Positions 1-12,800 are shown, numbered from the stretch's first letter. The stretch is DNA of 56,288 nt from a bacterium (GCA_021780355.1 JAJXYX010000043.1:1-56288); one strand, 5' to 3'. Numbers and translations are program-made. The notes: generated by a model from the letters alone, not told the origin.

Positions 1-64
1 CATCACGTTCTCGTCTATGTTGGAGCTTGAGCTGTTCGCGTTCTTTTTCAGTTAAAAAATTCAT
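1..64 (-). CDS. IS630-family transposase, N-terminal fragment (partial)
   Basis: Translates as MNFLTEKEREQLKLQHRRERD, resembling IS630 transposase N-termini. It is preceded by TTCACA-N17-CATAAT ending 6 nt before the ATG. Not in the ORF track. Confidence 0.7.
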   Translation of the reverse strand, partial: MNFLTEKEREQLKLQHRRERD

Positions 65-126
65 GCCACGATTATGCGGCCAAGAGAAATTTTTGTGAAT
101 CAAAATTTTGATTCACGAAGGGTATA
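1..126 (-). mobile_element. Left end of an IS630-family insertion sequence (continues beyond the window edge)
   Basis: The minus strand begins TA-TACCCTTCGTGAATCAAAATTTTGATTCAC, with a TA target dinucleotide at 125-126 and a perfect 22 bp subterminal palindrome at 95-116. A transposase-like start follows at 64. Confidence 0.75.
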
Positions 127-578
127 TTTGTGTACGGACAAATAATGAACTAGAATCGGATAAAATAAAGGGGAAGATTTTCCCATGCATACAGAAGTAT
201 TTTCATGGGGCTCTTTTTGAAAAGATTCCAAATCGAAAAAAGCCTGGAACAACATTCTGTGCCTATACGGACTATGAAAGCGATTATACAGGAGATTATA
301 CGTATTTTGTTGGAGAAGAAGTTTCATCGTTTGACCGTCCTTTGCCAGAAGGGTTCCAGAAACTGGTGATTCCGAGTCAACAGTATATGAAATTTACGAC
401 GAGTCCCGCGCCTATGCCAAATGTAATTGTAAACGCTTGGAAAGAAATTTGGAATATGTCTCCGAAAGAGCTTGGTGGAAAGCGTTGTTATAAGACAGAT
501 TTTGAAATTTATGATGAAAGAGCAGCAGATCACCAAAACATTGTTTTGGATGTCTATATAGGGATTGAGCCTAAGTAA
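108..578 (+). pseudogene. GyrI-like small-molecule-binding protein, 5' end interrupted by IS630
   Basis: Motifs YTDYESDYTGDYTYFVG, G-x-MP..V..AW..IW and DFEIYDER. The first codons (MIHEGY) come from the IS end. Removing the IS restores GGT ATT TGT GTA (G-I-C-V-R-T). Confidence 0.75.
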
Positions 579-592
579 AATAGAGGGAGTTT

Positions 593-937
593 ATGAATAC
601 AGCAGAAATCATCACAGAGTATTACAAGGCAATGGGGCAGAAGGATTTTGAAAAACTGGAGAGATTTTTGTCTTCAGACGTTCAATTTATCGGTCCTCTT
701 GCGAAATTGAAAGGGAAAGAAGCTGTCATTGAAGCTACAAAAAGATTTACCTCACTTTTCAAGGCTCTGAATGTACGAGCTAAGTTTGGTTCAAATAATC
801 AAGCTATGGTTGTTTATGATCTGGACTGCCCAGAGCCCATTGGTCTTTTTTCTAGCTCGGCTCTCATGACTTTTGAAAATGGCCTGATCATAAAAATAGA
901 GCTTTTTTACGATGCTCGCCCCTTCGATAAGAGGTAG
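593..937 (+). CDS. SnoaL/NTF2-like protein
   Basis: 114 aa with YYKAM..KDF..L...L..DV.F.GP and C-terminal GLIIKIELFYDARPF; GGAG RBS. Confidence 0.8.
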   Translation: MNTAEIITEYYKAMGQKDFEKLERFLSSDVQFIGPLAKLKGKEAVIEATKRFTSLFKALNVRAKFGSNNQAMVVYDLDCPEPIGLFSSSALMTFENGLIIKIELFYDARPFDKR

Positions 938-1986
938 TGATGTTTCGACAACCATCAGCCTTAAAGCCCAATGATAAGGTAGCCATTGTCTCACCTTCTT
1001 CTGGTATGCCATATCTTTTTCCTTGGGTATATGAACAGGGTTTAGATCGTTTAAAACAAGTATTCCAGCTTGAGCCAATCGAATTCCCGACTGCTCGCCA
1101 GAGTCCTGAATACTTATCTCGAAACCCAAAAGCACGAGCGGAAGATATCAATAGGGCATTTGCTGATCCATCGATCAAGGCCATCATTGCAACGATAGGT
1201 GGAAATGATCAAATCAGAATTCTTCCCTATTTGGATAAGAAAATAATCGGAGAAAATCCCAAAATCTTCATGGGTTATAGCGATTGCACCAATCTACATT
1301 TGTTGCTGTGGAATCTGGGTATTATTTCTTATTATGGTGGCGCAATAATGACGCAATTTGCCATGGGAGGAGGTATGCAGGAGTATACGGTCAACTCAAT
1401 TAGAAAGGCTGTTTTTGATCCTCCAATTGGTAAAGTGTTTGCTGCTTCTGAATATAGCGATGCAGATTTAGATTGGGGCGATAAACAGAATTTAAGCAAG
1501 AAGCGTCCTATGTACCCAAGCCATGGATGGATTTGGCATAATGATAAACAGAGTATAATTCAGGGGCGACTTTGGGGAGGATGTCTTGAGGTATTGGACC
1601 TTCATCTTTCGGTTAAGCGGTATTTACCCGACCCCGCCCAATTGAATGATGCTATTCTTTTCATAGAAACTTCAGAAGAGATGCCTTCTGAGGGGTTTGT
1701 ATATCGTTTTATTGCTGCTCTTGCTGAACTGCATATATTAGAAAAATTTCAAGCTATCTTAATGGCTTATCCAAAGGCGCAGTTTTGTGATAAGCAGCCA
1801 GCTGAGGGTAGAGAAGCCTTTATCGTTAATCAGCAGAAGGCGGTAAAAAGCGCGCTACAGGACTATGGTATTGCTGTCCCTGTCATCTTCAACATGAACT
1901 TTGGTCATACCGATCCTCAAATGATTATTCCAAATGGGGGTCATGTGAAAATTAATGGCTCTTTAAAAACGATCGAATTTTATTAA
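937..1986 (+). CDS. S66 family peptidase (LD-carboxypeptidase/MccF-like)
   Basis: IVSPSS, ATIGG, GYSD (Ser), GRLWGGCL, IETSEE (Glu) and FGHTDP (His). ATG at 940 is an alternative start. Confidence 0.9.
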   Translation: MMFRQPSALKPNDKVAIVSPSSGMPYLFPWVYEQGLDRLKQVFQLEPIEFPTARQSPEYLSRNPKARAEDINRAFADPSIKAIIATIGGNDQIRILPYLDKKIIGENPKIFMGYSDCTNLHLLLWNLGIISYYGGAIMTQFAMGGGMQEYTVNSIRKAVFDPPIGKVFAASEYSDADLDWGDKQNLSKKRPMYPSHGWIWHNDKQSIIQGRLWGGCLEVLDLHLSVKRYLPDPAQLNDAILFIETSEEMPSEGFVYRFIAALAELHILEKFQAILMAYPKAQFCDKQPAEGREAFIVNQQKAVKSALQDYGIAVPVIFNMNFGHTDPQMIIPNGGHVKINGSLKTIEFY

Positions 1987-2018
1987 TTTTTTTTACGAAA
2001 AAACTGTCAAAACATTCT

Positions 2019-2044
2019 TCTAATGCGTAAAAATTGCGTAATTT
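2019..2044 (+). repeat. Left copy of terminal inverted repeat with tandem TGCGTAA (putative integrase arm sites)
   Basis: TCTAATGCGTAAAAATTGCGTAATTT; 24/26 identical to the reverse complement of 9227-9252. Confidence 0.75.
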
Positions 2045-2121
2045 TCATCAAGCCTCTCCTGATTATAGCTGAATTCTCTATGAGAAATTGGTTTTAGGTG
2101 GCGAGATTAGTGATCTCTTTG

Positions 2122-2150
2122 TTGCCATTTAATCCAGTTTTTTCTACACT
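2122..2150 (+). promoter_or_regulatory. Putative sigma66/70 promoter of the integrase
   Basis: TTGCCA-N17-TACACT, followed by AAGGAAGG before ATG 2175. Confidence 0.5.
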
Positions 2151-2174
2151 AATGCCTTTTATAAGGAAGGGTAT

Positions 2175-3257
2175 ATGGGTGCGATTAGGGAAAGCAAAAA
2201 GAAAGATGGATCGGTTACCTACCACGCCGAAGTTCGTTTAAAAGGCTATCCTCCACAAAGAGAATCCTTTCGTACAAGGACATTGGCAAAAAAATGGATT
2301 CAAGACACAGAATCTTCGATTCGAGATGGCCGTCATGTTCGGATTGCCGAAGCAAAAAAGCACACCGTCAAAGATTTAATAGATAGATTCGTTACTCAGT
2401 GGCTATCGCAGTTTCCTCATAGGCTTGTCAGGCAAACAGCTTATCTAGCCTGGTGGAAAGATAGACTTGGTCATTTGCTTCTAGCCGATTTAACTCCAGC
2501 GGTTATTGCTGAAGCAAGAGATGCTTTGCTTCAGGAAAACACTACTAGGCAAAAATTACGAAACCCAGCGACGGTCAATCGATATCTGGCTGCTTTTTCA
2601 AGAGCTTTGACAATTGCCATGAAGGAATGGGGTTGGATTGATGATACCCCTATGCGGAAAGTCTCCAAGCCCTCAGAAGGAAATGGTAGAAATCGACTTC
2701 TTAGCCTAGATGAGAAAGATCGTCTATTACAGGAGTGCAAGCTCTCCCCCAATCCTCATCTTTTTCCTATCGTTTCTCTGGCGCTTTTGACTGGCATGCG
2801 GTTCGGTGAAATTGTTGGATTAAAGTGGGAGGATGTCGATCGCCAACATCGCACTATCACTCTTGAGAAAACGAAGAATGGGGAGAGAAGGGTTCTTCCT
2901 TTAACTGAAGCAGTAGAAACGCTGCTGGCGAATTGGCAAAAGACTGATATTGCATCTGGTCTAATTTTCAAGCCAACGAGTCCTACAAACCGATCAGGGG
3001 TGGTAGATATTCGGAATGCCTTTGTAAAAGCTCTTCAACGAGCAAAAATTCTAAATTTCCGATTTCACGACCTTAGGCACGCCGCCGCGTCATTTTTAGC
3101 AATGAGCGGGGCCACCCAGGGAGAATTAATGGCCATTTTGGGTCATAAAACACCGACGATGACCAGGCGCTATGCCCATTATAGTCAAAAGCACATAGCA
3201 AATGTGATGGAGAGAACCCAGTCAAGTTTGTTAGGGGTTATTAATGAATCCAAATAA
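2175..3257 (+). CDS. int: Tyrosine recombinase / phage-type integrase
   Basis: TGMR, KTKNG, HDLRH, LGH and RYAH catalytic motifs; N-terminal arm-binding-like region. Confidence 0.95.
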   Translation: MGAIRESKKKDGSVTYHAEVRLKGYPPQRESFRTRTLAKKWIQDTESSIRDGRHVRIAEAKKHTVKDLIDRFVTQWLSQFPHRLVRQTAYLAWWKDRLGHLLLADLTPAVIAEARDALLQENTTRQKLRNPATVNRYLAAFSRALTIAMKEWGWIDDTPMRKVSKPSEGNGRNRLLSLDEKDRLLQECKLSPNPHLFPIVSLALLTGMRFGEIVGLKWEDVDRQHRTITLEKTKNGERRVLPLTEAVETLLANWQKTDIASGLIFKPTSPTNRSGVVDIRNAFVKALQRAKILNFRFHDLRHAAASFLAMSGATQGELMAILGHKTPTMTRRYAHYSQKHIANVMERTQSSLLGVINESK

Positions 3258-4353
3258 ATCGGTAATAGATGATCTCGAAAAGAAATTTCAGACGGAAATG
3301 TCATTGCTTTTAGAGTGCTCTACAAAGCTTGGAACTTGTGAAAGAATTGCGATGCGGATAATTCCTATGTTCCAGGAGCATCCCATGACAAGCAAACTCA
3401 TTGATGAGTGGGATCAAAAAAATTGTGATGGCAGTCTGCTCGTTCGTGCGTATACCGAACTCGATACTGCATGCCAACAAATTCATGCCAATTCCTATTG
3501 GGTTAAACAAGTAGAGCAGATTCTTGAAGAGGTTAAGCAAGAGGGAAGTTGTTCAAATATATCCGATAGAGACTGCGAGGGTCTTCATGTAGATGCTAAA
3601 GGCAACCAATCTACTATAAAAATTCCAAGAGCTCAAGCTCCATGTCAAAGGGTTTATTACAAACTCAGATCGCTTTATGTTTTGTCGATTTCTAAGACGT
3701 GGGATATGACTTTTGCTCCGTCTGCATATAGAGTCATCCAGGCAAGTAGCCAAGGGGAAATGGCTATTAGTATTGATACCGATCCTCGATATATCTGGAG
3801 GCAACTGAGGGTATTTGAAGAGTGTTGGGCGATTCGGAATGACGTTCTTAATATCGGTTGGCCGAGGGCTAATGGGAGTGGAGTGGCGATGTGGATTGAA
3901 GCAGATCAAAATTTTAGGAACGCTTTGCGATGTCGGTTGGCTTCAGATTTTTCATTTGCAAGTCATTATGGCCCCGATCGAAAAATGGATTTTTTTCAGC
4001 CGAAAATCTTAACACAATTGGTGGATCGATTACTCAAGGAGATCATTCTGCTTCTGCGTCAACAAGCTGTTGAAATTAAACCGAAAGGACCGAGAGCTAT
4101 GAAGAAAGAGGCCAGAAAACTCGCTCAGAGTGTCTTGGAGAAAAAACTATTGCCGCTGTCTGTAGAAGAAAGGAAGGAATATGCCTATGATTCGGTGCGC
4201 TCCATCATCTGGAAGGCGGCACAACAATCCAATGTCCATGGACTATTTGAAGCGTGTAGCGAAACGTTAATCAATGATGAGTGTTCCCTTTTCGCTAAAA
4301 AGCATGGTTGGAAGCCAAAAAGAGGAAAAAAAGGGTCGGCGGTTTCAAAGTAA
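3244..4353 (+). CDS. Hypothetical protein coupled to the integrase
   Basis: 369 aa ORF overlapping the int stop by 14 nt; basic C-terminus (KPKRGKKG); no family recognised. Confidence 0.7.
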   Translation: MNPNKSVIDDLEKKFQTEMSLLLECSTKLGTCERIAMRIIPMFQEHPMTSKLIDEWDQKNCDGSLLVRAYTELDTACQQIHANSYWVKQVEQILEEVKQEGSCSNISDRDCEGLHVDAKGNQSTIKIPRAQAPCQRVYYKLRSLYVLSISKTWDMTFAPSAYRVIQASSQGEMAISIDTDPRYIWRQLRVFEECWAIRNDVLNIGWPRANGSGVAMWIEADQNFRNALRCRLASDFSFASHYGPDRKMDFFQPKILTQLVDRLLKEIILLLRQQAVEIKPKGPRAMKKEARKLAQSVLEKKLLPLSVEERKEYAYDSVRSIIWKAAQQSNVHGLFEACSETLINDECSLFAKKHGWKPKRGKKGSAVSK

Positions 4354-4548
4354 GCTCTCATTTTTTGGGCTCTTTTTCTCTATGAAAAGGGTCGTCTACT
4401 TGTCCGTTAAATTCGGACGTCTTATTTAAATCCTATCTATCTGATGTAATGTGGGTTAGAGAAGATAAGTTATGCCTAACTGATGTGCCCTAAGAAGCAA
4501 GGGCGTTAGGCGGCTATCCTCCGTAACTATAAACCTACAGGATTTATT

Positions 4549-4866
4549 ATGGATTGTTCAGTTCAACCTTCTTTAGAAAAAGTTGTTCGCACTGTGCGCG
4601 AATTCTGCCAAAAGAATCGTGAAACAGGAGCTTGGCCCGCTAGCGAGCATGCAGTACGTGCCATCATTCAACAAGGGGAGCAAAGCCCTTTTGCTCCTGC
4701 CATTCTCAGGTACAACAGACGAGTTCTCATAGATCAGGTCGCATGGGATTCCTGCTTAGCTCGTCTCTCTCAACCCGCAACCAATATGCCCATAAAGGAG
4801 GTAGAAGATGCTAAGGAAACACCAAGAAAGATCAAGACGCAACCGAGTCGCACCATGCGCTCGTAA
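4549..4866 (+). CDS. Excisionase/AlpA-like small DNA-binding protein
   Basis: TVREFC...WPASEHAVRAII...ILRYNRRVLID..AW is a winged-helix Xis-like pattern, in the usual position between int and the replication gene. Confidence 0.6.
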   Translation: MDCSVQPSLEKVVRTVREFCQKNRETGAWPASEHAVRAIIQQGEQSPFAPAILRYNRRVLIDQVAWDSCLARLSQPATNMPIKEVEDAKETPRKIKTQPSRTMRS

Positions 4867-4974
4867 GAATGTTTGGATCGATTATGAATGGCAAAAAAAG
4901 CGCCTCAGTCAGTGCCCTCGAAAGTACGAAACTGAAGCGCGTAGAGTGGCTGAAATCTTAGGACTTTAAGCCTT

Positions 4975-5009
4975 GTTCCTCCCAAGCTCTAACTTGGGGG
5001 GAACTTTTT
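4975..5009 (+). terminator. Intrinsic terminator/attenuator just upstream of the helicase gene
   Basis: GTTCCTCCCAAG-CTCTAA-CTTGGGGGGAAC followed by TTTTT. Confidence 0.5.
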
Positions 5010-5033
5010 ATCAACCACAAGAACAGGACTATA

Positions 5034-7070
5034 ATGAACGATAATACTACACCTACGGATACACCACCAGACCCAATATCGGCAAATGCCTTTTTGATCC
5101 AACCGATGAAGGGAGCGACGAAAGCACTTAAGGCTATAAATACTGATTTAAAAAAGGCGGGCTGCCATTGGCATATGAGAAACGCATGGAGCTGTCCCAT
5201 TGGAATGCAGGATATGGTGGAGACAATGCTTGCAAGCAGGCAAATCAGCGTTGAAATTGTCCTTCACAAGGACGATTACTTCGATAAAAGCAGGAGCGGT
5301 CAAGAAGCGGAAAACATATGGACGCAGATTGACATCAAGGAAAGGCAACATTACGCCGAAGATCGAGCCTTAATAACTGAACGTGCAGCATTGGAGAAAG
5401 AGATCGAAACTCGGGGTTTGTCAGCAGATGATCCGAAAATTCAAAGCCTCTTGGAAAAATTGGATCGGCGGGAAGCTGTACAAAAAGAGCTGCAAGATGA
5501 GATCAATCAGTTGCGGAATGGTGCCAAATTACTGGAAGAGAAGGCAGAGTCGATGCTGCCATTTCACATTTTGGGACATAATGCAAAGCGAGAAATTTTG
5601 CTGTGGAAGGAGGGGCGACTTATTGCATTACCAGCAGCGCGACTGAACAAGGATGAGCTTCGCCTTTATATCGGGAGTGAGTCGGAGTGGTTTCAATCTG
5701 AGGATTCGATTAAAGCTTTGAAGGAAGCGATCATCGATGCAGCACACAAAAAAGGATTCATTGATGACGTTTCACCTTTGCGATCGGGGCTATGGATGGT
5801 GAATGACAAATGGTTGATTATTTCTGGCAAGAAAGCGGGCTTTATTGAAAAGGAGCGATTTTCTTACCTAAAAGCACCTCTCTTTGAAGGAAAACTCGTT
5901 GAGACTGAGGGGGCAGCATGGTTGGATTGGGAGATTTTCGAGACGTCGATAGGCAATCGAGCCCTTTTAAAAGAGTCTTTCGACCTTATTCATAGCAAGG
6001 TGAAGCAATGGAATTGGATTGTTCCTTCGATGGCGGCTTTTGTGACCGCCTTTGCGATGTTAGCCATTGTGCAGCAAGCCATGAAGTGGCGTCCGTGGAT
6101 ATATGTCACGGGCGCTGCATCAACGGGGAAAACCACATTTTGGGAAAATATTTTACAGCACATTTATGGAGGGCTTGTGGAGCGTTTAGATAAGAGTACC
6201 GCGCATGCTACTGCTCAAACTATTGGCAATAGCGGCCGCATTCCTGTTTTTGACGAATTTGAAAAGCACAAGCACATTCCTGAAATTCTGGAGTTGGCTA
6301 AGCTCTTCAACAAGGGAGGGCAAAAAACCAGTGGGACAGGTTCCGATAAAGCTCATCGGTTTGATCTGCATCACATGCCATGGTTTGGATCGATTTATTT
6401 GCCCAAGAAGTTTATGCAGGACACTGCGCAAGAATCGCGTCTTGTTAAGTTCGAGCTGAACAAGATTCCGCAAGGATCGCCAGCCGTTGATAAATTTGAC
6501 GACGATGGGCGAGTGATCTCTGCCAGGATTACGGCTGCCGTGACTACCTTGTGGGAAGTTCTCGAAGAGAAAGCACAAAAGATCAACGCAGATCGGCATC
6601 GTCTTTTGCAAGTGCATCCAGGAATCAAAATTCGCACAGTAGAAAATTTTATGTACGCCTCAGCTCTTTTAGAGATTGTTGCTCCAGAAGGACTAGAAGA
6701 GAGTTTCCCCATGTGGGCGGCGACACAGACAGAAGATGATGGCGATAAGTTACTCGATACGATTTTGGCCAGTCTCATCTTTGTTGATGGTGACAAGAAG
6801 TCGGTACGTGAGATGTTGCAAATGGGACAGCATGAGGAGCAGTTAGAGCGGCATGGCGTGAAAATTGTCGTTCATAAAGCGAAGAGGTACTTAGCGCTTC
6901 GTTGTGAGAACATCACGAGGCACTTGCTCAAAGATACCGAATACGCTTCCTTAGACATCAAGGGGCCGTTGGCAAGAACGGACGGGGCTATAGGAAGTGT
7001 GCAGGTAAAGATTACGGGAACGAACCAGCGTTGCATCTTGATTCCGATGGAAAAAGTAGAGAATGAATAA
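5034..7070 (+). CDS. Replicative helicase-like P-loop ATPase (phage/satellite primase-helicase C-terminal type)
   Basis: WRPWIYVTGAASTGKT (Walker A), PVFDEFE (Walker B), an ESR motif and an N-terminal coiled coil. No primase motifs recognised. Confidence 0.75.
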   Translation: MNDNTTPTDTPPDPISANAFLIQPMKGATKALKAINTDLKKAGCHWHMRNAWSCPIGMQDMVETMLASRQISVEIVLHKDDYFDKSRSGQEAENIWTQIDIKERQHYAEDRALITERAALEKEIETRGLSADDPKIQSLLEKLDRREAVQKELQDEINQLRNGAKLLEEKAESMLPFHILGHNAKREILLWKEGRLIALPAARLNKDELRLYIGSESEWFQSEDSIKALKEAIIDAAHKKGFIDDVSPLRSGLWMVNDKWLIISGKKAGFIEKERFSYLKAPLFEGKLVETEGAAWLDWEIFETSIGNRALLKESFDLIHSKVKQWNWIVPSMAAFVTAFAMLAIVQQAMKWRPWIYVTGAASTGKTTFWENILQHIYGGLVERLDKSTAHATAQTIGNSGRIPVFDEFEKHKHIPEILELAKLFNKGGQKTSGTGSDKAHRFDLHHMPWFGSIYLPKKFMQDTAQESRLVKFELNKIPQGSPAVDKFDDDGRVISARITAAVTTLWEVLEEKAQKINADRHRLLQVHPGIKIRTVENFMYASALLEIVAPEGLEESFPMWAATQTEDDGDKLLDTILASLIFVDGDKKSVREMLQMGQHEEQLERHGVKIVVHKAKRYLALRCENITRHLLKDTEYASLDIKGPLARTDGAIGSVQVKITGTNQRCILIPMEKVENE

Positions 7071-7071
7071 A

Positions 7072-7297
7072 GTTACTGTGTTACTGCGGAGTAGCATTAA
7101 AAGTAAGATGTAACTTATTGATATTAAGTAAAGAATAGAGATTGGTAGCGCGGTAGCAGAGGGATTGGGGCATTAGTGAAAGTAATGAATAAGCGTTTGA
7201 GGAATTTGCGAGATAAGCACCAAAGGCTGCTACCTGCTACCGACAGTTGCAATGTCCTTGAATTAAGCAAATTAAGTGGTAGCTTGAGAATGCTACC
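7072..7297. repeat. Iteron-like cluster, putative replication origin of the element
   Basis: Ten GTA(G/A)C-core motifs in both orientations at 7072, 7080, 7091, 7110, 7144, 7152, 7229, 7236, 7278 and 7292, with AT-rich spacers, directly after the helicase stop. Confidence 0.6.
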
Positions 7298-7312
7298 AAA
7301 GGAAATAAAGAG

Positions 7313-7918
7313 ATGACAAAAAAGCTGAAAAAACAAACTGATCTATCTTCACTTTCGCCAAAAGCGTCAGCGGAAAATCGCCTAGAGAAACCTATGAAAT
7401 TAAATGCAGTGGATAACCAGAAATCTGGAGAGAAGAAGTCGAAGTTTACGCTTGCAGATGGAACAGCTGTAAATTCAGAATCGATGGAACGTTTTGAAAC
7501 GGCCTTCAAGCAGACCACGGGTACCAATGATGCAGATTTTGCTACGGCCATATTGGTGCATGTCTCCAGAGGATTGCCAGACTCAACATTCGAGGAACGA
7601 TTCACGTGCATGGCTAGTCTACTTCCGACGGTTAGGCCGCAGGATGAAACGGAGGCGTTGCTTGCGGGGCAATTCCTAGTTTTACAGGCATCTGCCATGG
7701 AATGTCTGCGTCAGGGCCATTTTCAAGATGGGTTTTATCACACTGAGCGCTATATCAATTTGGCAACCAAACTCTTCAATGCCGCTACTCAAACCATGCA
7801 GGCTCTTACCAAGTACCGAGCTAAGGGTCAGCAAACGGTACAAGTGATCCATGTCCATAATGAAGGGCAGGCGATCGTCGCTCAGAACGTATCATCTGGG
7901 GGAGGGGTGGGGACATAA
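7313..7918 (+). CDS. Conserved hypothetical protein of the type found upstream of HGGxSTG genes
   Basis: PQDETEALLAGQ...AMECL...KL.....QTMQAL.KYRAKGQQTVQVIHVHNEGQAIV. Confidence 0.7.
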   Translation: MTKKLKKQTDLSSLSPKASAENRLEKPMKLNAVDNQKSGEKKSKFTLADGTAVNSESMERFETAFKQTTGTNDADFATAILVHVSRGLPDSTFEERFTCMASLLPTVRPQDETEALLAGQFLVLQASAMECLRQGHFQDGFYHTERYINLATKLFNAATQTMQALTKYRAKGQQTVQVIHVHNEGQAIVAQNVSSGGGVGT

Positions 7919-7946
7919 TTTCTTGAATTGAACCCCATGGATCACT

Positions 7947-8192
7947 ATGAGTCAATGTACGGCAAAAAGCAAACGGTCTGGCAACCAGTGTTTAAAGTGG
8001 GCAATGCGCGGAAGAACAACCTGTCACATGCATGGAGGAACTTCCAAGGGCCCCATAACAAAGGGAGGGAAAGAACGCTCTCGTCGGGCAGCCTTAAGGC
8101 ATGGGGGATATACTAAACAAGCGAAGGATCATCATCGAGATGTAATGGCTTTAATTCAGAAAAGCAAGCGATTAATTCAAAGCTGCAAATAA
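7947..8192 (+). CDS. HGGxSTG-domain (CCCH zinc-finger-like) small basic protein
   Basis: CTAKSKRSGNQC...AM....CHMHGGTSKGP.T..G......A.RHG.Y. Confidence 0.8.
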   Translation: MSQCTAKSKRSGNQCLKWAMRGRTTCHMHGGTSKGPITKGGKERSRRAALRHGGYTKQAKDHHRDVMALIQKSKRLIQSCK

Positions 8193-8232
8193 AAGTTCTC
8201 AGTGCGACCGTCTAACAAAAAAAGTGGACTTT

Positions 8233-8997
8233 CTATTTATCGATCATTGAAGTAGGGAATTCATTAATATCATGATAACCAAACACTTCGACTTCTGGAT
8301 GTTTAGCAATAAAATGTCGGATTTTATTTAATGTTGCAATCCGCAATTCATTGTCATCTGCCCTCATTGTTGCCAATTCATTGACGGGATGGTTGGTGTC
8401 TGTAAGTTCGCCTCTTAGATAGTAGGCATCTCCGATATAAAATAACCATTGGGATTGGTGCTTCAAAGCGACACCGCAGTGTCCAAGAGTATGTCCGAAA
8501 AGAGGAATTAGATAGATTTCGATTTCAGAGCCGACATCTACTTTTCTCGCTTCAAAATCGAACCAGGTTTGTGACGATTTGGAATAGGTTTTTATCATAG
8601 GATTGTGTTCGAGTGGTTGAGATAAATATCTCGGATTACCGTTGTTAAAATTTTCATATTCTTCTATTCCAAGATGGACTTTTGCATTCGGGAAATCGGC
8701 CAATCCTCCTATATGATCATTATCTAAATGAGAAATAATACAGTCTGTTACATTCGCAGGGTTTAATCCGAGCTTTTCAATTCTTTTTATTGCGGTCCAT
8801 TGTTCATTGAATTTGTAGCCTACAATATCTATTAATTGTTTCCCAATTCTTGCAAGGGGATTTTGTGTATCCATCAGGCCGATCCCTGCATCAATTAATA
8901 TTAACTTTTTAGCTGTTTCCAATAACAAGCAATGACCAATTGCTCGACCGTATCCAGGAGAATGAATTTCTACGCAATTCAAGTGATGGATTTTCAT
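8233..8997 (-). CDS. MBL-fold metallo-hydrolase (cargo)
   Basis: SHLDNDH, GHTLGH, GDAY and C-terminal HD. ATG 8997 (MKIHHLNC) preferred over TTG 9003. Confidence 0.9.
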   Translation of the reverse strand: MKIHHLNCVEIHSPGYGRAIGHCLLLETAKKLILIDAGIGLMDTQNPLARIGKQLIDIVGYKFNEQWTAIKRIEKLGLNPANVTDCIISHLDNDHIGGLADFPNAKVHLGIEEYENFNNGNPRYLSQPLEHNPMIKTYSKSSQTWFDFEARKVDVGSEIEIYLIPLFGHTLGHCGVALKHQSQWLFYIGDAYYLRGELTDTNHPVNELATMRADDNELRIATLNKIRHFIAKHPEVEVFGYHDINEFPTSMIDK

Positions 8998-9226
8998 CGT
9001 CAAAAATTCCTTTTGCTTGATAGAGATGATAACCTAATAGGTTTAGCAAGTATAAACGAAAACAACGGGCTTTTCCAGGTCAAAGTTCTTGACTGGGCGC
9101 ATTATACGATAGAGAAACATATCCTTCCATCGCCCAACAAAAGCGTTGCAGCCCGAGATAACCTGGAATGTGCAATTGCTTAACTTCAGAGGCGTATAGC
9201 TAAGAGAAGGCGTTGTCCTTCCGTTT

Positions 9227-9252
9227 AAATTACGCAAATTTTACGCACTAGA
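9227..9252 (-). repeat. Right copy of terminal inverted repeat (putative integrase arm sites)
   Basis: AAATTACGCAAATTTTACGCACTAGA, 100 bp inside the tmRNA 3' end. Confidence 0.75.
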
Positions 9253-9352
9253 CTGGGTAAAAGTGGCCTAAATGAAAAGAAAAAGGACTTATCGGTTTCC
9301 CTTTAAGTCCTTGATTTACTTAGTGTTATTTGATTTGGTTTAATCTGAATTT

Positions 9353-9744
9353 TGGAGGTGGAGAGAATCGAACTCTCGTCCTTAGCAAACTTCATACAGA
9401 TGACTACATGCTTAGCGCTTAGGGTGTTTAGGGAGCCTTGCTAGTAAGCGCGCTACTTGAGGCTCTCCGAGCTATCTTATATCTCGAACTCCCTTCAAGA
9501 TCACTCAAGAATGAGGGGTTCATACCAAGATGTATAACAGTAGAACATCTAAGACTCTCGGTCAGATCCTAGGCTACTGTGCTTCAACGGCTATTAAGCC
9601 GCAGCTGCAAAACCTTCTTCGTTACCGAAGAGGCTGACAATTTTAGAGTTGTCGTTTATATTTAATCGGATATTTTAAGAGGCCAACGATTGTCCTCTAC
9701 ATGCCACCCATACTTTGTTTCCAAGTCGAAACCTTGACACCCCC
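9353..9744 (-). ncRNA. ssrA: tmRNA
   Basis: 5' GGGGGTGTCAAGGTTTCGAC and 3' GAGAGTTCGATTCTCTCCACCTCCA. The acceptor stem has the G3:U pair and CCA is not encoded. The tag frame 9653-9594 reads DNSKIVSLFGNEEGFAAAA followed by TAA TAG. Confidence 0.97.
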
Positions 9745-9889: not shown

Positions 9890-12800
9890 ATGTTTCATTG
9901 GGAGCAGAGCGAGTCGTTTCCGGAGAGAGAAGAAAAAGTTTTGTCTTTTTGGCAGGCTCAAGGGATTTTTAAAAAGTCGGTAGAGGCTAGGAAGGGCTCG
10001 CCCCTTTTCTCTTTTTACGACGGCCCTCCCTTTGCGACGGGGCTGCCCCATTACGGCCACTTGCTGGCGGGAACGATCAAGGACGTGGTGCCTCGGTATA
10101 AGACGATGAAGGGATTTTGCGTCCCTAGGCGTTTTGGCTGGGACTGCCATGGGTTGCCTGTCGAAAATGAGATCGAAAAGGGCAAAGAGCTCTCGGGGTC
10201 TGCAGCTATTGAGGAGTTCGGCATTGCGAACTTTAATGAAGAGTGCCGCAGCATTGTCTTGAGATATTCCAACGAATGGAAAAAGACGGTGAACCGCTTT
10301 GGGAGATGGGTTGATTTTGATCATGTCTACCGGACGATGGATGTCTCTTTTATGGAGTCTGTTTGGTGGGTCTTTAAAGAGCTTTACGAGCAGGATTTGG
10401 TTTATGAGGGATTTAAGGTGATGCCTTTTTCAGCAAAGCTGGGAACTCCTTTGTCGAATTTTGAGGCGAATCTTAACTACAAGGATGTCGATGATCCGAG
10501 TTTAGTGGTCGCTTTTGAGTTAGTAGATGAGCCCAATACGCGGTTTTTGGCTTGGACGACGACTCCTTGGACGCTCCCTTCGAACTTGGCTTTGATCGCT
10601 GGGGGAAAGCTCGATTATGTCAAGGTGAGGGCTGGAGACGGCAAATATTACATTTTAGCTGAAGCTCGCTTGCCGGGTTATTTTAAAGAAGGGGCGGAGG
10701 TTCTAGAGCGTTTTAAAGGGGAAGCGTTAAAAGGGCGTAGATACAAGCCTTTATTTCCTTTCTTTGCAGACAGAGCAAAGGAAAACGCCTTTCAGCTATT
10801 GGTAGATGATTTTGTGTCGGTAGAAGATGGAACGGGCATTGTGCATGCGGCGCCGGCTTTTGGCGAGATGGACTTTTTTGTCTGCAAGCGAGAGGGGATC
10901 GATTTAGTTTGCCCAGTAGATGCGAATGGAGCATTTACTTCTGAAGTACCTCCTTATACAGGGCAGTATGTCAAAGATGCGGACAAGGAGATCATCCGCG
11001 CGCTGAAACAGCAGGGATCGATTTTTTATCAAGGAACCATTCGGCATAGATACCCCTTTTGCTGGCGCTCCGATACGCCGCTGATTTATAAGGCGGTGAG
11101 CACATGGTTTGTGGCGGTAGAAAAAATTAAAGATAGACTCCTTGAAGCCAATGAACAAATCACTTGGATGCCTTCTCATATTAAAGAGGGGCGGTTTGGC
11201 AAGTGGCTCGAAAATGCGAGAGATTGGGCGATCAGCCGCAACCGTTATTGGGGGACGCCGATCCCGATTTGGCGCTCTGAAGATGGCGATTGTTTAGTCG
11301 TTGGCAGCGTAGCCGAATTAGAAAAGCTCACCGGTGAAAAAACGACAGATTTGCATCGCCATTTCATCGATCATTTAGAAATTAAGGTTGGTTCTAAAAT
11401 TTATCGGCGCATCTCTGAAGTGTTTGATTGCTGGTTTGAGTCGGGATCGATGCCGTATGCGCAAAATCATTATCCTTTTGAAAACAAAGAGACGTTTGAA
11501 AAAACTTTCCCTGCTGACTTTATTGCAGAAGGGTTGGATCAAACTCGCGGCTGGTTTTACACGCTGACGGTTCTCTCTTCAGCTCTTTTCCGAAAACCTG
11601 CGTTTAAAAACGTGATCGTGAACGGTATTATTTTGGCTGAAGATGGTAATAAAATGTCCAAACGGTTAAAAAATTACCCTGATCCTGAAGTGGTCATTCA
11701 GCGTTTTGGCGCGGACGCGGTAAGACTTTATATGCTCAATAGTCCTGCTGTTAAGGCGGACGATCTTCGCTTTTCTGAGCGCGGGGTGGAGCATGTGCTG
11801 AGACAAGTTTTGATTCCTCTTTGGAACTCATTTGTCTTCCTTTCCACGTATGCGAAAATCTATAAGTGGACGCCCTCGTCTCACGAAAAGGCTCCTACTG
11901 CCCTCATTGATAGGTGGCTTTTATCCCTTACGCAAAAGTTGATTCAGGATGTTGAGTCCTCTATGGATCGGTACGATCTAAATAGCGCTGTTGAACCTTT
12001 TGTCGGCTTTGTTGATCAGTTGACCAATTGGTATATCCGCCGCTGCCGCAGCCGATTTTGGGCAGATGAAGACACGCAGGATCGAAGAGAGGCTTTTTCT
12101 ACGCTTTACACAGCGCTTCTTCTTGTGGCAAAGATCGCAGCTCCCTTTATTCCGTTCATTACAGAGGCGATCTATCAACAGCTTCGGCAGTCAGAGGCTC
12201 CTCAATCTGTGCATCTTTGCGACTATCCAGTTTATCAAGAAAAGCTTCGAGATCTTGGTCTTGAACAGGAAGTGCAGGCGGCTCAAGCGGCTGTTAGTCT
12301 TGGTCATAGTCTAAGGAAAGAGCATAAGATGAAAGTGCGCCAGCCTTTGTCCAAAGCTCATGTCATCACTTCCAATCTCTCCCTGCTCCATTCTTTAGAC
12401 AAGCAAAAACAACTCATCGCTGATGAGCTCAATGTAAAAACGATTGAATTTCATAGCGATGAAGGAAAATTTGTCCAGTGGCAGGCAAAACCCAATTTCC
12501 CGATCCTCGGAAAAAAAATCGGTAAGCTCATGCCTCAGGCGCAGAAAGTCATCCAAGGATTGGATCGTCATCAAATGAACTCTCTTGCGCATGGCGGAAA
12601 CGTTTCGGTCGTGATTGGCGATTTGCTGATCGAGCTAGAACCTAACGACGTTCAAATTGAACGAAAGGTTAAAGAAGGGCTCGCCGCAGGCAATGAAGGG
12701 GAACTTACGGTCGCTCTCGATCTTGCTTTAACTGAAGATCTCCTCTTGGAAGGACTTTCTCGAGAGCTCATGAATAAGATCAACATGATGCGCCGCGAGA

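Follow-up and report, generated by a model that had tools for sequence, protein, structure and literature searches.

A putative integrative element with its own replicon at the tmRNA gene of an environmental chlamydia, and its relatives across the phylum

Phage-inducible chromosomal islands (PICIs), among them the pathogenicity islands of Staphylococcus aureus (SaPIs), form a class of about 10-15 kb with a tyrosine integrase at one end and direct repeats at the attachment (att) sites. They encode a small protein related to the small terminase (TerS), carry accessory cargo, and are devoid of capsid, tail and lysis genes. In the available text of PMC9371898, their superfamily 3 (SF3) initiator-helicase (8tch fold) is followed directly by hexamer iterons. 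An element resembling these islands on these points, tentatively so for the TerS-related protein, was found in a 56,288-nt stretch of bacterial DNA (GCA_021780355.1 JAJXYX010000043.1:1-56288; the window, to whose full length coordinates refer unless a contig is named) from an environmental chlamydia (genome G000, 96.7% complete). An earlier note on this stretch had proposed a minimal, helper-dependent island at positions 2019-9352, next to the transfer-messenger RNA (tmRNA) gene, ssrA. The present analysis makes it quite probable that the locus is a site-specific integrative element with its own replicon, which sits in the 3' end of ssrA and shuttles cargo genes.

The element differs from SaPIs and PICIs in several respects. 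No Stl-like repressor or divergent regulatory pair was recognised in it, and no cpm, ppi or rpp gene. Its TerS likeness is limited to an 81-aa zinc domain, no helper is known, and it has an obligate intracellular host phylum, two cargo slots and many tRNA or tmRNA targets. The tycheposons of Prochlorococcus, in the available part of their description, combine a tyrosine recombinase, tRNA or tmRNA sites and swapped small modules for integration and replication; they carry up to 10 kb of niche-related cargo, some with terS, and their tandem arrays and partial tRNA copies build islands (bioRxiv 10.1101/2020.12.28.424599). By that preprint's description, the chlamydial family shares with them the tyrosine recombinase at tRNA or tmRNA genes, partial repeats, tandem arrays, module swapping and cargo. 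The same available text states that PICI-like tycheposons never carry extra cargo, whereas the chlamydial element has a TerS-like domain and cargo together, and it makes no mention of the pair of proteins, orf201 and the HGGxSTG zinc protein (HGG protein), that marks the present family.

The staphylococcal cassette chromosome mec (SCCmec) supplies the best fold match for the helicase of the element (Cch, 5dgk), and it is likewise an integrative island without transfer genes of its own, its vehicle being unknown. SCCmec relies on large serine recombinases (Ccr) and inserts in rlmH/orfX; the window element has a tyrosine integrase and the ssrA site, and its helicase is 12% identical in sequence to Cch. 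P4-like satellites share with the family an integrase and a D5-type primase-helicase at a tRNA-type site; contig C103 of the host genome carries a DUF5906 helicase with a DnaG-like primase. The P4 genes psu, delta and sid and cos-related genes were not recognised in the window element, though not searched by name, and its helicase has no primase domain. Mobile DNA known in environmental chlamydiae comprises, besides microviruses, a small plasmid family and a handful of large conjugative islands. The chlamydial 7.5-kb plasmid (pGP1-8) has a DnaB-like pGP1 helicase, a ParA-like pGP5 and 22-bp tandem iterons, whereas the window element has an SF3/D5-like helicase, no ParA match and no tandem 22-mers. 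The element is neither an integrative conjugative or mobilizable element (ICE or IME), nor an SCC cassette, nor the chlamydial plasmid. The closest systems are the PICIs and SaPIs in replicon, size and the hint of TerS, the tycheposons, as far as described in the available text, in tRNA and tmRNA targeting, module swapping and cargo, and the replication module of SCCmec in fold.

The gene content given in the earlier note was recovered. The open reading frames (ORFs) from the integrase through a 369-aa protein, a small protein, an ATPase and a 201-aa protein (orf201) to the HGG protein are co-oriented, a metallo-beta-lactamase (MBL)-fold gene is convergent to them, and all six core ORFs are intact (Table 1). 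Integrase, predicted SF3 helicase, iteron origin and tmRNA 3'-end repeats together agree with an element integrated at ssrA in a chlamydial genome; the tmRNA gene of the window was called with ARAGORN and Rfam RF00023. When the seven island proteins were scanned against Pfam, PHROGs and NCBIfam, none matched a capsid, large terminase, relaxase or type IV secretion system (T4SS) family, as the note had said, and none matched phage structural or lysis families; for relaxases no genome-wide search was made. The sole packaging-family match among these proteins was a weak one, of the HGG protein to the TerS family phrog_9231 (0.0016).

The proposed extent of the island did not hold. The real ends are a direct repeat of the tmRNA 3' end, and the element continues past window position 1. 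This repeat is exact over 20 nt between window 9354-9373 and contig C85 of the host genome (C85:1732-1751, reverse). The C85 copy is preceded by a native-type terminator, and a copy of a short motif described below lies about 100 bp inside this left end. Past the left repeat, C85 holds a gene for a YhcG/DUF1016 nuclease and then the first 54 codons of a Cass2 gene, the remainder of which stands at window 108-578. Window 1-126 is a high-depth repeat that interrupts the assembly between C85 and the window, with a depth of 62-176 in bin 1-434 against 10-30 over the remaining contig and several loose ends at 123-127. The repeat itself has 5-10 times the contig depth and several different continuations, and is probably an insertion sequence or other repeat that splits both the Cass2 gene and the assembly.

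The element therefore takes in some 1.6 kb of C85, the repeat and window 1-9373, a length of about 11 kb or more. It is not minimal, having a second cargo slot on the left that holds the Cass2, SnoaL and LD-carboxypeptidase genes. The LD-carboxypeptidase gene, earlier taken for host flank, is cargo, with the integrase on one side of it and the left direct repeat, on C85, on the other. A Cass2 homologue occupies the matching slot in related locus L007.

A 26-nt inverted repeat (2019-2044 and 9227-9252) had been assigned to the ends of the island. It exists, but it is not an end of the element: its arms are two of the three copies of a motif with the core GCGTAA-N5-GCGTAA, which occurs three times per element in all relatives. 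The copy upstream of the integrase gene (int) is kept in the same place in nine loci (L004, L005, L007, L008, L010, L011, L012, L014 and L026). Transposon-like ends were rejected because of this threefold occurrence and because direct repeats of tRNA or tmRNA 3' ends form the true bounds. The motif probably represents the arm sites of the integrase.

The right boundary is placed by comparison across hosts. The 126-bp right end, including the hairpin terminator of ssrA, is 93.6-95.2% identical at the nucleotide level in L004, L005, L007 and L010, whose hosts have isoleucyl-tRNA synthetase (IleRS) genes that are 67.6-69.6% identical; in the same-genus genomes G001 and G004 the right end is unrelated. 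This conservation across distant hosts means that the element reaches the tmRNA itself.

The left boundary recurs in the relatives as well. L007, L010, L011 and L014 each have, 1.4-3 kb to the left of int, a stretch of 17-22 nt that repeats the tmRNA 3' end exactly; a native-type terminator comes before it, and a copy of the motif follows about 100 bp further inside. In L005, the LD-carboxypeptidase gene is found inside a decayed repeat. The same architecture has as its bounds a perfect 51-nt tRNA-Tyr repeat in L026 and, in L008, where the left cargo slot is empty, a tRNA-Tyr repeat of about 52 nt with a few mismatches. In L013 the repeat is one of 46 nt from tRNA-Thr, and another element follows in tandem; L014 also holds tandem elements.

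A hairpin at 2097-2117, followed by the conserved TTTGTTGCCATTTAATCCAG, stands ahead of int, and homology with same-genus G004 stops in its loop. Its identity as a decayed tmRNA repeat, and so as the left end, was rejected because the hairpin and a TTGTTGC box precede int in tRNA-Tyr elements too, with other stem letters. The stem changes with compensation (GGGAT/ATCCC in L026, GGGGATT/AATCCC in L008), and the hairpin is best read as a putative part of the int leader; it may also be an old tandem-insertion junction. In the deleted element L021 (G001:C22), a near-perfect, MITE-like palindrome with arms of about 55 nt (1246-1420) lies between the int-leader hairpin and the motif copy.

The 678-aa ATPase had one profile match, a weak one to a PHROG family of DNA primases (7e-11). 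A search of 5.8 billion proteins returned 64 relatives, some with N-terminal zf-CHC2/Toprim primase domains. An AlphaFold 2 (AF2) model from 32 sequences had a mean confidence (pLDDT) of 85.3, and its best Foldseek matches were SCCmec Cch (5dgk, 2.8e-10) and SaPIbov1 Rep (8tch, 7e-8), followed by poxvirus D5/E5, NrS-1 and PriRep1 helicases. From these matches, the protein is identified at the level of the modelled fold as an SF3 self-loading initiator-helicase. The earlier note had called it helicase-like and had set its modelling as a helicase as a test; the fold matches to Cch, SaPIbov1 Rep and D5/E5 answer in its favour.

The iteron cluster of the note was also found, as six GGTAGC hexamers just downstream of the helicase gene (6 of the window's 20 within 7144-7297; whole-window shuffles give a mean of 10.9). 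The predicted origin begins with three degenerate copies (GTTAC/GTAGC repeats, 7072-7096) and a 47-bp AT-rich tract of 19% GC (7097-7143). Two GGTAGC copies (7144-7157), a 71-bp spacer, two inverted GCTACC copies (7229-7241) and a divergent pair at 7278 and 7292 follow. Eleven related loci keep this layout. L013, whose helicase is 41% identical, has GTTGCA as its hexamer in an unchanged layout. The covariation of hexamer and helicase is the strongest evidence for what would be a working origin. SaPI origins have 6-12 penta- or hexanucleotide iterons that directly follow rep, with a central region flanked on either side by at least two of them in opposite orientations, and the iterons of the window fit this rule as given in the available text of PMC9371898.

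The orf201 profile was used for a census of 301 chlamydial genomes from 165 genera. It was found in 71 genomes and 52 genera, in up to six copies per genome, and in none of the 30 genomes of family f28. Twenty census loci from long contigs were then compared; one of them, L097, has the tmRNA tag peptide of L005 and may be the same locus, so that the 20 are not wholly independent of the first 11 related loci. An island-type integrase lay within 10 kb in 17 loci, the HGG gene directly downstream of orf201 in 14, and a tmRNA or tRNA gene (Met, Ser, Leu, Phe, Tyr, Asn or Thr) beside the element in 12. At least eight tRNA or tmRNA targets are used by the family, and at least five kinds of replication module occur among the 20 loci. 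The family is thus phylum-wide and consists of a common integrase, a swappable replication module, orf201 and the HGG protein.

Two sister elements in the host genome itself have the same backbone from int to orf201-HGG. Contig C103 (L036, 11.4 kb) carries an integrase, an unknown protein, a small protein, the DUF5906 helicase and DnaG-like primase, homologues of orf201 (50%) and of the HGG protein (65%), and cargo. The second (L037, G000:C65:8.6-15.8 kb) lies at tRNA-Thr(cgt) and has a DUF3987 helicase and primase. No description of such elements in chlamydiae was found in the literature, where supplementary tables of tycheposon or satellite surveys might list chlamydial hits. In L092 (G010:C145, 1653-8756), a primase-helicase, a short orf201, an HGG gene and a further helicase stand beside a large serine recombinase (phrog_95) that replaces the tyrosine integrase.

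Comparison of element and host genes indicates transfer. The integrase is 91-96% identical in amino acids across loci, against 65-72% for the IleRS of the hosts, and by this comparison the element appears to have recently crossed genus boundaries. Helicases are about 91% or about 65% identical beside near-identical integrases, which means that the modules recombine. The helicase was found in none of four same-genus genomes (G001-G004). Scanning 30 neighbouring proteins in the 11 related loci against families returned no structural or transfer family, and none of the 20 census loci matched two chlamydial large terminase (TerL) sequences, the only queries of a scan that left out capsid, portal and relaxase.

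These data bear on whether the locus is a decaying, immobile remnant of a prophage, ICE or integrated plasmid, a view we hold to be very improbable. Deleted versions do occur in G004 and G001, the helicase is in pieces in L014, the integrase is frameshifted in L010, and a repeat interrupts Cass2 in the window copy. However, the core ORFs and the direct repeat are intact in the window, the same compact arrangement is met again in many genera, with perfect repeats of 46-51 nt, and element genes are far more alike than host genes. Structural, relaxase and partition genes were seen in none of the examined copies, and no examined locus shows homologues embedded in a full prophage or ICE, the situation that the earlier note had named as refuting its proposal.

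In the favoured reading, a mobile element with its own replicon, the left-to-right order is the direct repeat on C85, an arm motif, the left cargo slot (YhcG nuclease, Cass2, SnoaL, LD-carboxypeptidase), a second arm motif, the hairpin and the integrase. The variable gene, the small HTH-like (helix-turn-helix) protein, the SF3 initiator-helicase, the iteron origin, orf201 and the HGG protein come next, and the right cargo slot (MBL hydrolase), the third arm motif, the terminator and the direct repeat with tmRNA close the element. The integrase would recombine the repeats of 21-22 nt at the two ends, a step in which the 105-aa protein and the GCGTAA-N5-GCGTAA arm sites probably take part. Replication of the circle would start at the hexamer iterons that directly follow the helicase gene, in the manner of SaPI Rep and SCCmec Cch. 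The element would then integrate into ssrA in another cell, to which it brings an ssrA 3' end and a terminator of its own.

Several observations weigh against this reading. The contiguity of the window with C85 is deduced from the matching gene halves and not from a read. The ssrA sites of G004 and G001 keep only the left cargo arm, with int to HGG gone, so decay and deletion also shape the locus, and part of the element may be a fixed island. No empty ssrA site was found; these two genomes carry deleted elements and not a clean attB. Sequencing runs, available as contig assemblies only, show the integrated form and no back-joint of an excised circle; the loose ends at 9253 and 9352 are accounted for by the left end of the element itself on C85. 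Terminal overlap was absent from all five short contigs, so neither these nor the run contigs gave a circular junction. Replication would need the host primase, since the element has none of its own. The 105-aa protein, which the note had called Xis-like, matches nothing in Pfam or PDB profiles; the name rests on a language-model lead, with HTH_17 (0.91) and Exc (0.90) as its nearest named ESM clusters, and positional equivalents exist in all sister elements. The orf201 fold, finally, has no match at E ≤ 0.001 in the pdb and BFVD sets of Foldseek. Apart from these, a metagenome contig of 11.4 kb (L095) has the order orf201-like gene, cargo, integrase, 522-aa protein, helicase, a circular permutation without terminal overlap that may stem from an excised circle or from two elements in tandem.

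The orf201 protein is the hallmark of these elements, and its family extends well beyond chlamydiae, with 5,634 representative proteins matching its profile at E ≤ 0.001. Among ten relatives, all were without a Pfam family, and two had marginal PHROG matches (E 0.002-0.007) to unrelated families, none of them packaging. The model of orf201 (pLDDT 85.7) shows a beta-hairpin and a helical bundle whose long hairpin spans 112-169; its tail is highly conserved yet unstructured. A search of VIA-wide returned generic helical hairpins only (Z ≤ 10, residues 108-174), and a pattern scan of IMG/VR with the helicase and orf201 alignments returned no relatives. P0100 shows a tandem duplication of the orf201 core.

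In the HGG protein, C4, C26 and H29 are invariant and C15 nearly so, and a basic tail follows. No literature on HGGxSTG proteins was found. By tblastn, the domain occurs in 13 Caudoviricetes records, mostly at the very start of the genome; a search for longer forms gave one match only. In all three phage records inspected, the domain forms the start of a protein of 190-215 aa that is encoded just upstream of terL and the portal gene; one of these proteins is annotated as terS. In P0185, a 276-aa representative, the orf201 core and an HGGxSTG domain at its C-terminus are naturally fused. The predicted orf201-HGG complex scored 0.46 against 0.22 for the best control, with runs agreeing on at least 88% of contacts and a partner pLDDT of at least 67; 58 of 80 solved complexes came up to that mark, as did 2 of 110 mismatched pairs, and passes at or below 0.60 are often wrong. 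The prediction thus lends weak support to an association of the two proteins. The pair may form a DNA-binding module, and a role in packaging specificity is a lead, not a result. That orf201 supplies the missing body of TerS was rejected, since hhalign gave a probability of 0.13% against the C-terminal part of phage HGG proteins.

The element could be a true PICI-like phage satellite: a tailed helper would induce it to excise and replicate, the pair would act as a new, split, small-terminase-like specificity factor directing the helper TerL to package the island into the helper's capsids, and the whole family would be phage satellites of an obligate intracellular phylum. We regard this as rather unlikely. 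It is favoured by the matches of the HGG protein to phrog_3678 (3e-8) and the TerS phrog, by its place at the TerS position in phages, by the adjacency and fusion of the pair, with a weakly supportive complex prediction, and by the replicon of SaPI Rep type. Large terminase genes were also found in 23 of the 301 genomes, with PHROGs in agreement (phrog_979, 3.4e-162; phrog_2), and at G074:C59:7600-12800 Terminase_6N, Phage_portal and Phage_capsid (HK97) stand side by side in a metagenome-assembled genome that is 99% complete with 1% contamination. This cluster may represent a tailed prophage of the phylum, or else a contig that was binned wrongly.

Against the satellite stand the host genome and the census. 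The helper dependence of the earlier note was pure inference, and no helper was found in G000: Terminase_6N, Phage_capsid (HK97), the T4SS-DNA_transf coupling protein and TraC_F_IV had no match there, nor did Phage_F, the microvirus capsid, in a search whose control was silent. Terminase_6N was present in 8 of the 71 element-bearing genomes and missing from 63, and the association of orf201 carriage with terminase (8 of 23 versus 63 of 278) was not significant (p = 0.20; a rough figure, as kin are not independent). In 22 of the 23 terminase-positive genomes there was no match to Phage_portal or Phage_capsid. Four other terminase loci (Table 1) have the gene together with a conserved ORF of about 162 aa and a ParB-methyltransferase or SNF2 helicase, and the G263 cluster adjoins an island-type integrase at tRNA-Leu. 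Neither orf201 nor the helicase has IMG/VR relatives by pattern scan, orf201 is absent from PHROGs and unlike the C-terminal part of phage HGG proteins, and genes for a repressor, for capsid remodelling or for interference were not recognised. Those chlamydial phages that have been characterised belong to the Microviridae, which are not known to use terminases.

Alternatively, the element may be a helper-independent cargo shuttle of the tycheposon or SCCmec kind, which excises, replicates briefly and travels as naked or vesicle-borne DNA within a shared host cell; orf201-HGG would then serve maintenance or regulation rather than packaging. This is a serious possibility that falls somewhat short of an even chance. 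It accords with the two cargo slots filled with unrelated genes (MBL, HIT, HAD, MFS, LysR/LysE, Fic, SDR, Cass2, ISL3 transposase), with the lack of a large terminase in most carrier genomes, and with the missing coupling protein and TraC in G000. Chlamydia is naturally competent, which fits as well. Swapped replication modules and many tRNA or tmRNA targets also agree with it, both traits being described for tycheposons in the available text of bioRxiv 10.1101/2020.12.28.424599. A helper-independent shuttle, however, gives no obvious role to a constant orf201-HGG pair with a TerS-type DNA-binding domain. Helper-phage packaging through this pair is the leading candidate for the vehicle between cells, held at no better than even likelihood.

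A compact, self-replicating family that targets tRNA and tmRNA genes in about a quarter of the genomes searched would offer a concrete and testable route of gene flow in the phylum. It would also supply parts for chlamydial genetics, namely an integrase whose 21-nt site is defined, and a one-protein replicon for which the origin has been mapped. The role of orf201, once worked out, would annotate many elements elsewhere. If the link of the HGG protein to TerS reflects packaging, it points to unknown tailed phages or terminase-based transfer agents in the phylum. If the element is a satellite, undiscovered terminase-using phages or the capsid-less terL clusters (22 of 23 genomes) move DNA between chlamydiae inside protist hosts.

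Table 1. Coordinates of the features at the ssrA locus (window positions) and of the four terminase loci in other chlamydial genomes.
Feature	Position	Strand	Match or remark
Multi-copy repeat at contig edge	1-126	.	cuts Cass2-like gene, breaks assembly within element
Left cargo slot: C-terminal part of Cass2/GyrI-like effector-binding protein	108-578	+	PF14526 2.9e-23
Left cargo slot: SnoaL-like protein	593-937	+	PF12680 1.8e-7
Left cargo slot: LD-carboxypeptidase (Peptidase_S66)	937-1986	+	PF02016 1.1e-32, PF17676 3.2e-20
GCGTAA-N5-GCGTAA motif, putative integrase arm-type or regulatory site upstream of int	2019-2044, core 2025-2041	+	
5-bp-stem hairpin GAGAT..ATCTC, resembling tmRNA acceptor/T-arm, upstream of int	2097-2117	+	
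Tyrosine integrase	2175-3257	+	PF00589 1.9e-28, phrog_1 2.4e-66
Variable mosaic position-2 protein, 369 aa	3244-4353	+	start overlaps integrase stop; no family
Small conserved protein, 105 aa, candidate excisionase/HTH regulator	4549-4866	+	
Predicted SF3 (D5/Cch/SaPI-Rep-like) initiator-helicase, 678 aa	5034-7070	+	Walker A GAASTGKTT
Iteron origin (predicted)	7072-7297	.	
orf201, family hallmark protein, 201 aa	7313-7918	+	AF2 pLDDT 85.7
HGGxSTG CCCH zinc protein, 81 aa	7947-8192	+	NF041373 2.5e-10, phrog_3678 3e-8, phrog_9231 0.0016
Right cargo slot: MBL-fold hydrolase, 256 aa, convergent	8233-9003	-	PF00753 6.5e-15
GCGTAA-N5-GCGTAA motif, putative arm site about 110 bp from core	9227-9252, core 9230-9246	-	
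Element-borne hairpin and T-run, present terminator of ssrA	9274-9312	-	
attR core: 21-22 nt direct repeat, tmRNA 3' end to T-loop	9352-9373	.	second copy G000:C85:1732-1752
tmRNA (ssrA), integration target	9350/9353-9744	-	ARAGORN; Rfam RF00023 139 bits
Terminase locus L090	G158:C1:805-810 kb		
Terminase locus L091	G239:C2:1.652-1.656 Mb		
Terminase locus L089	G263:C1:2.166-2.171 Mb		
Terminase locus L092	G010:C145:25-27 kb		

Beyond the tmRNA lies the gene for isoleucyl-tRNA synthetase, and in GC content the island is not set apart from the remainder. The 369-aa position-2 protein had no match in Pfam, PHROGs or NCBIfam, and its Atlas model (pLDDT 0.43) gave TM scores of at most 0.29. Its domains are shuffled between loci and it is absent in L008; the protein is dispensable.

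The product of 8233-9003 scored 35-45 bits against NCBIfam lactonase models with cut-offs of 360-425. It is named a generic MBL-fold hydrolase because its scores lie far under every curated lactonase or beta-lactamase cut-off. Cargo varies by copy and includes HIT, HAD, GH130-like, ISL3 transposase, MFS, LysR/DUF2000/LysE, DUF5677, Fic and SDR genes, as well as a HerA-like ATPase with a D12 methylase. In L006, ARAGORN called a tRNA with anticodon tta (reads UAA) at 11713-11785, in the cargo region near a HerA-like ATPase (DUF87) and a D12 adenine methylase.

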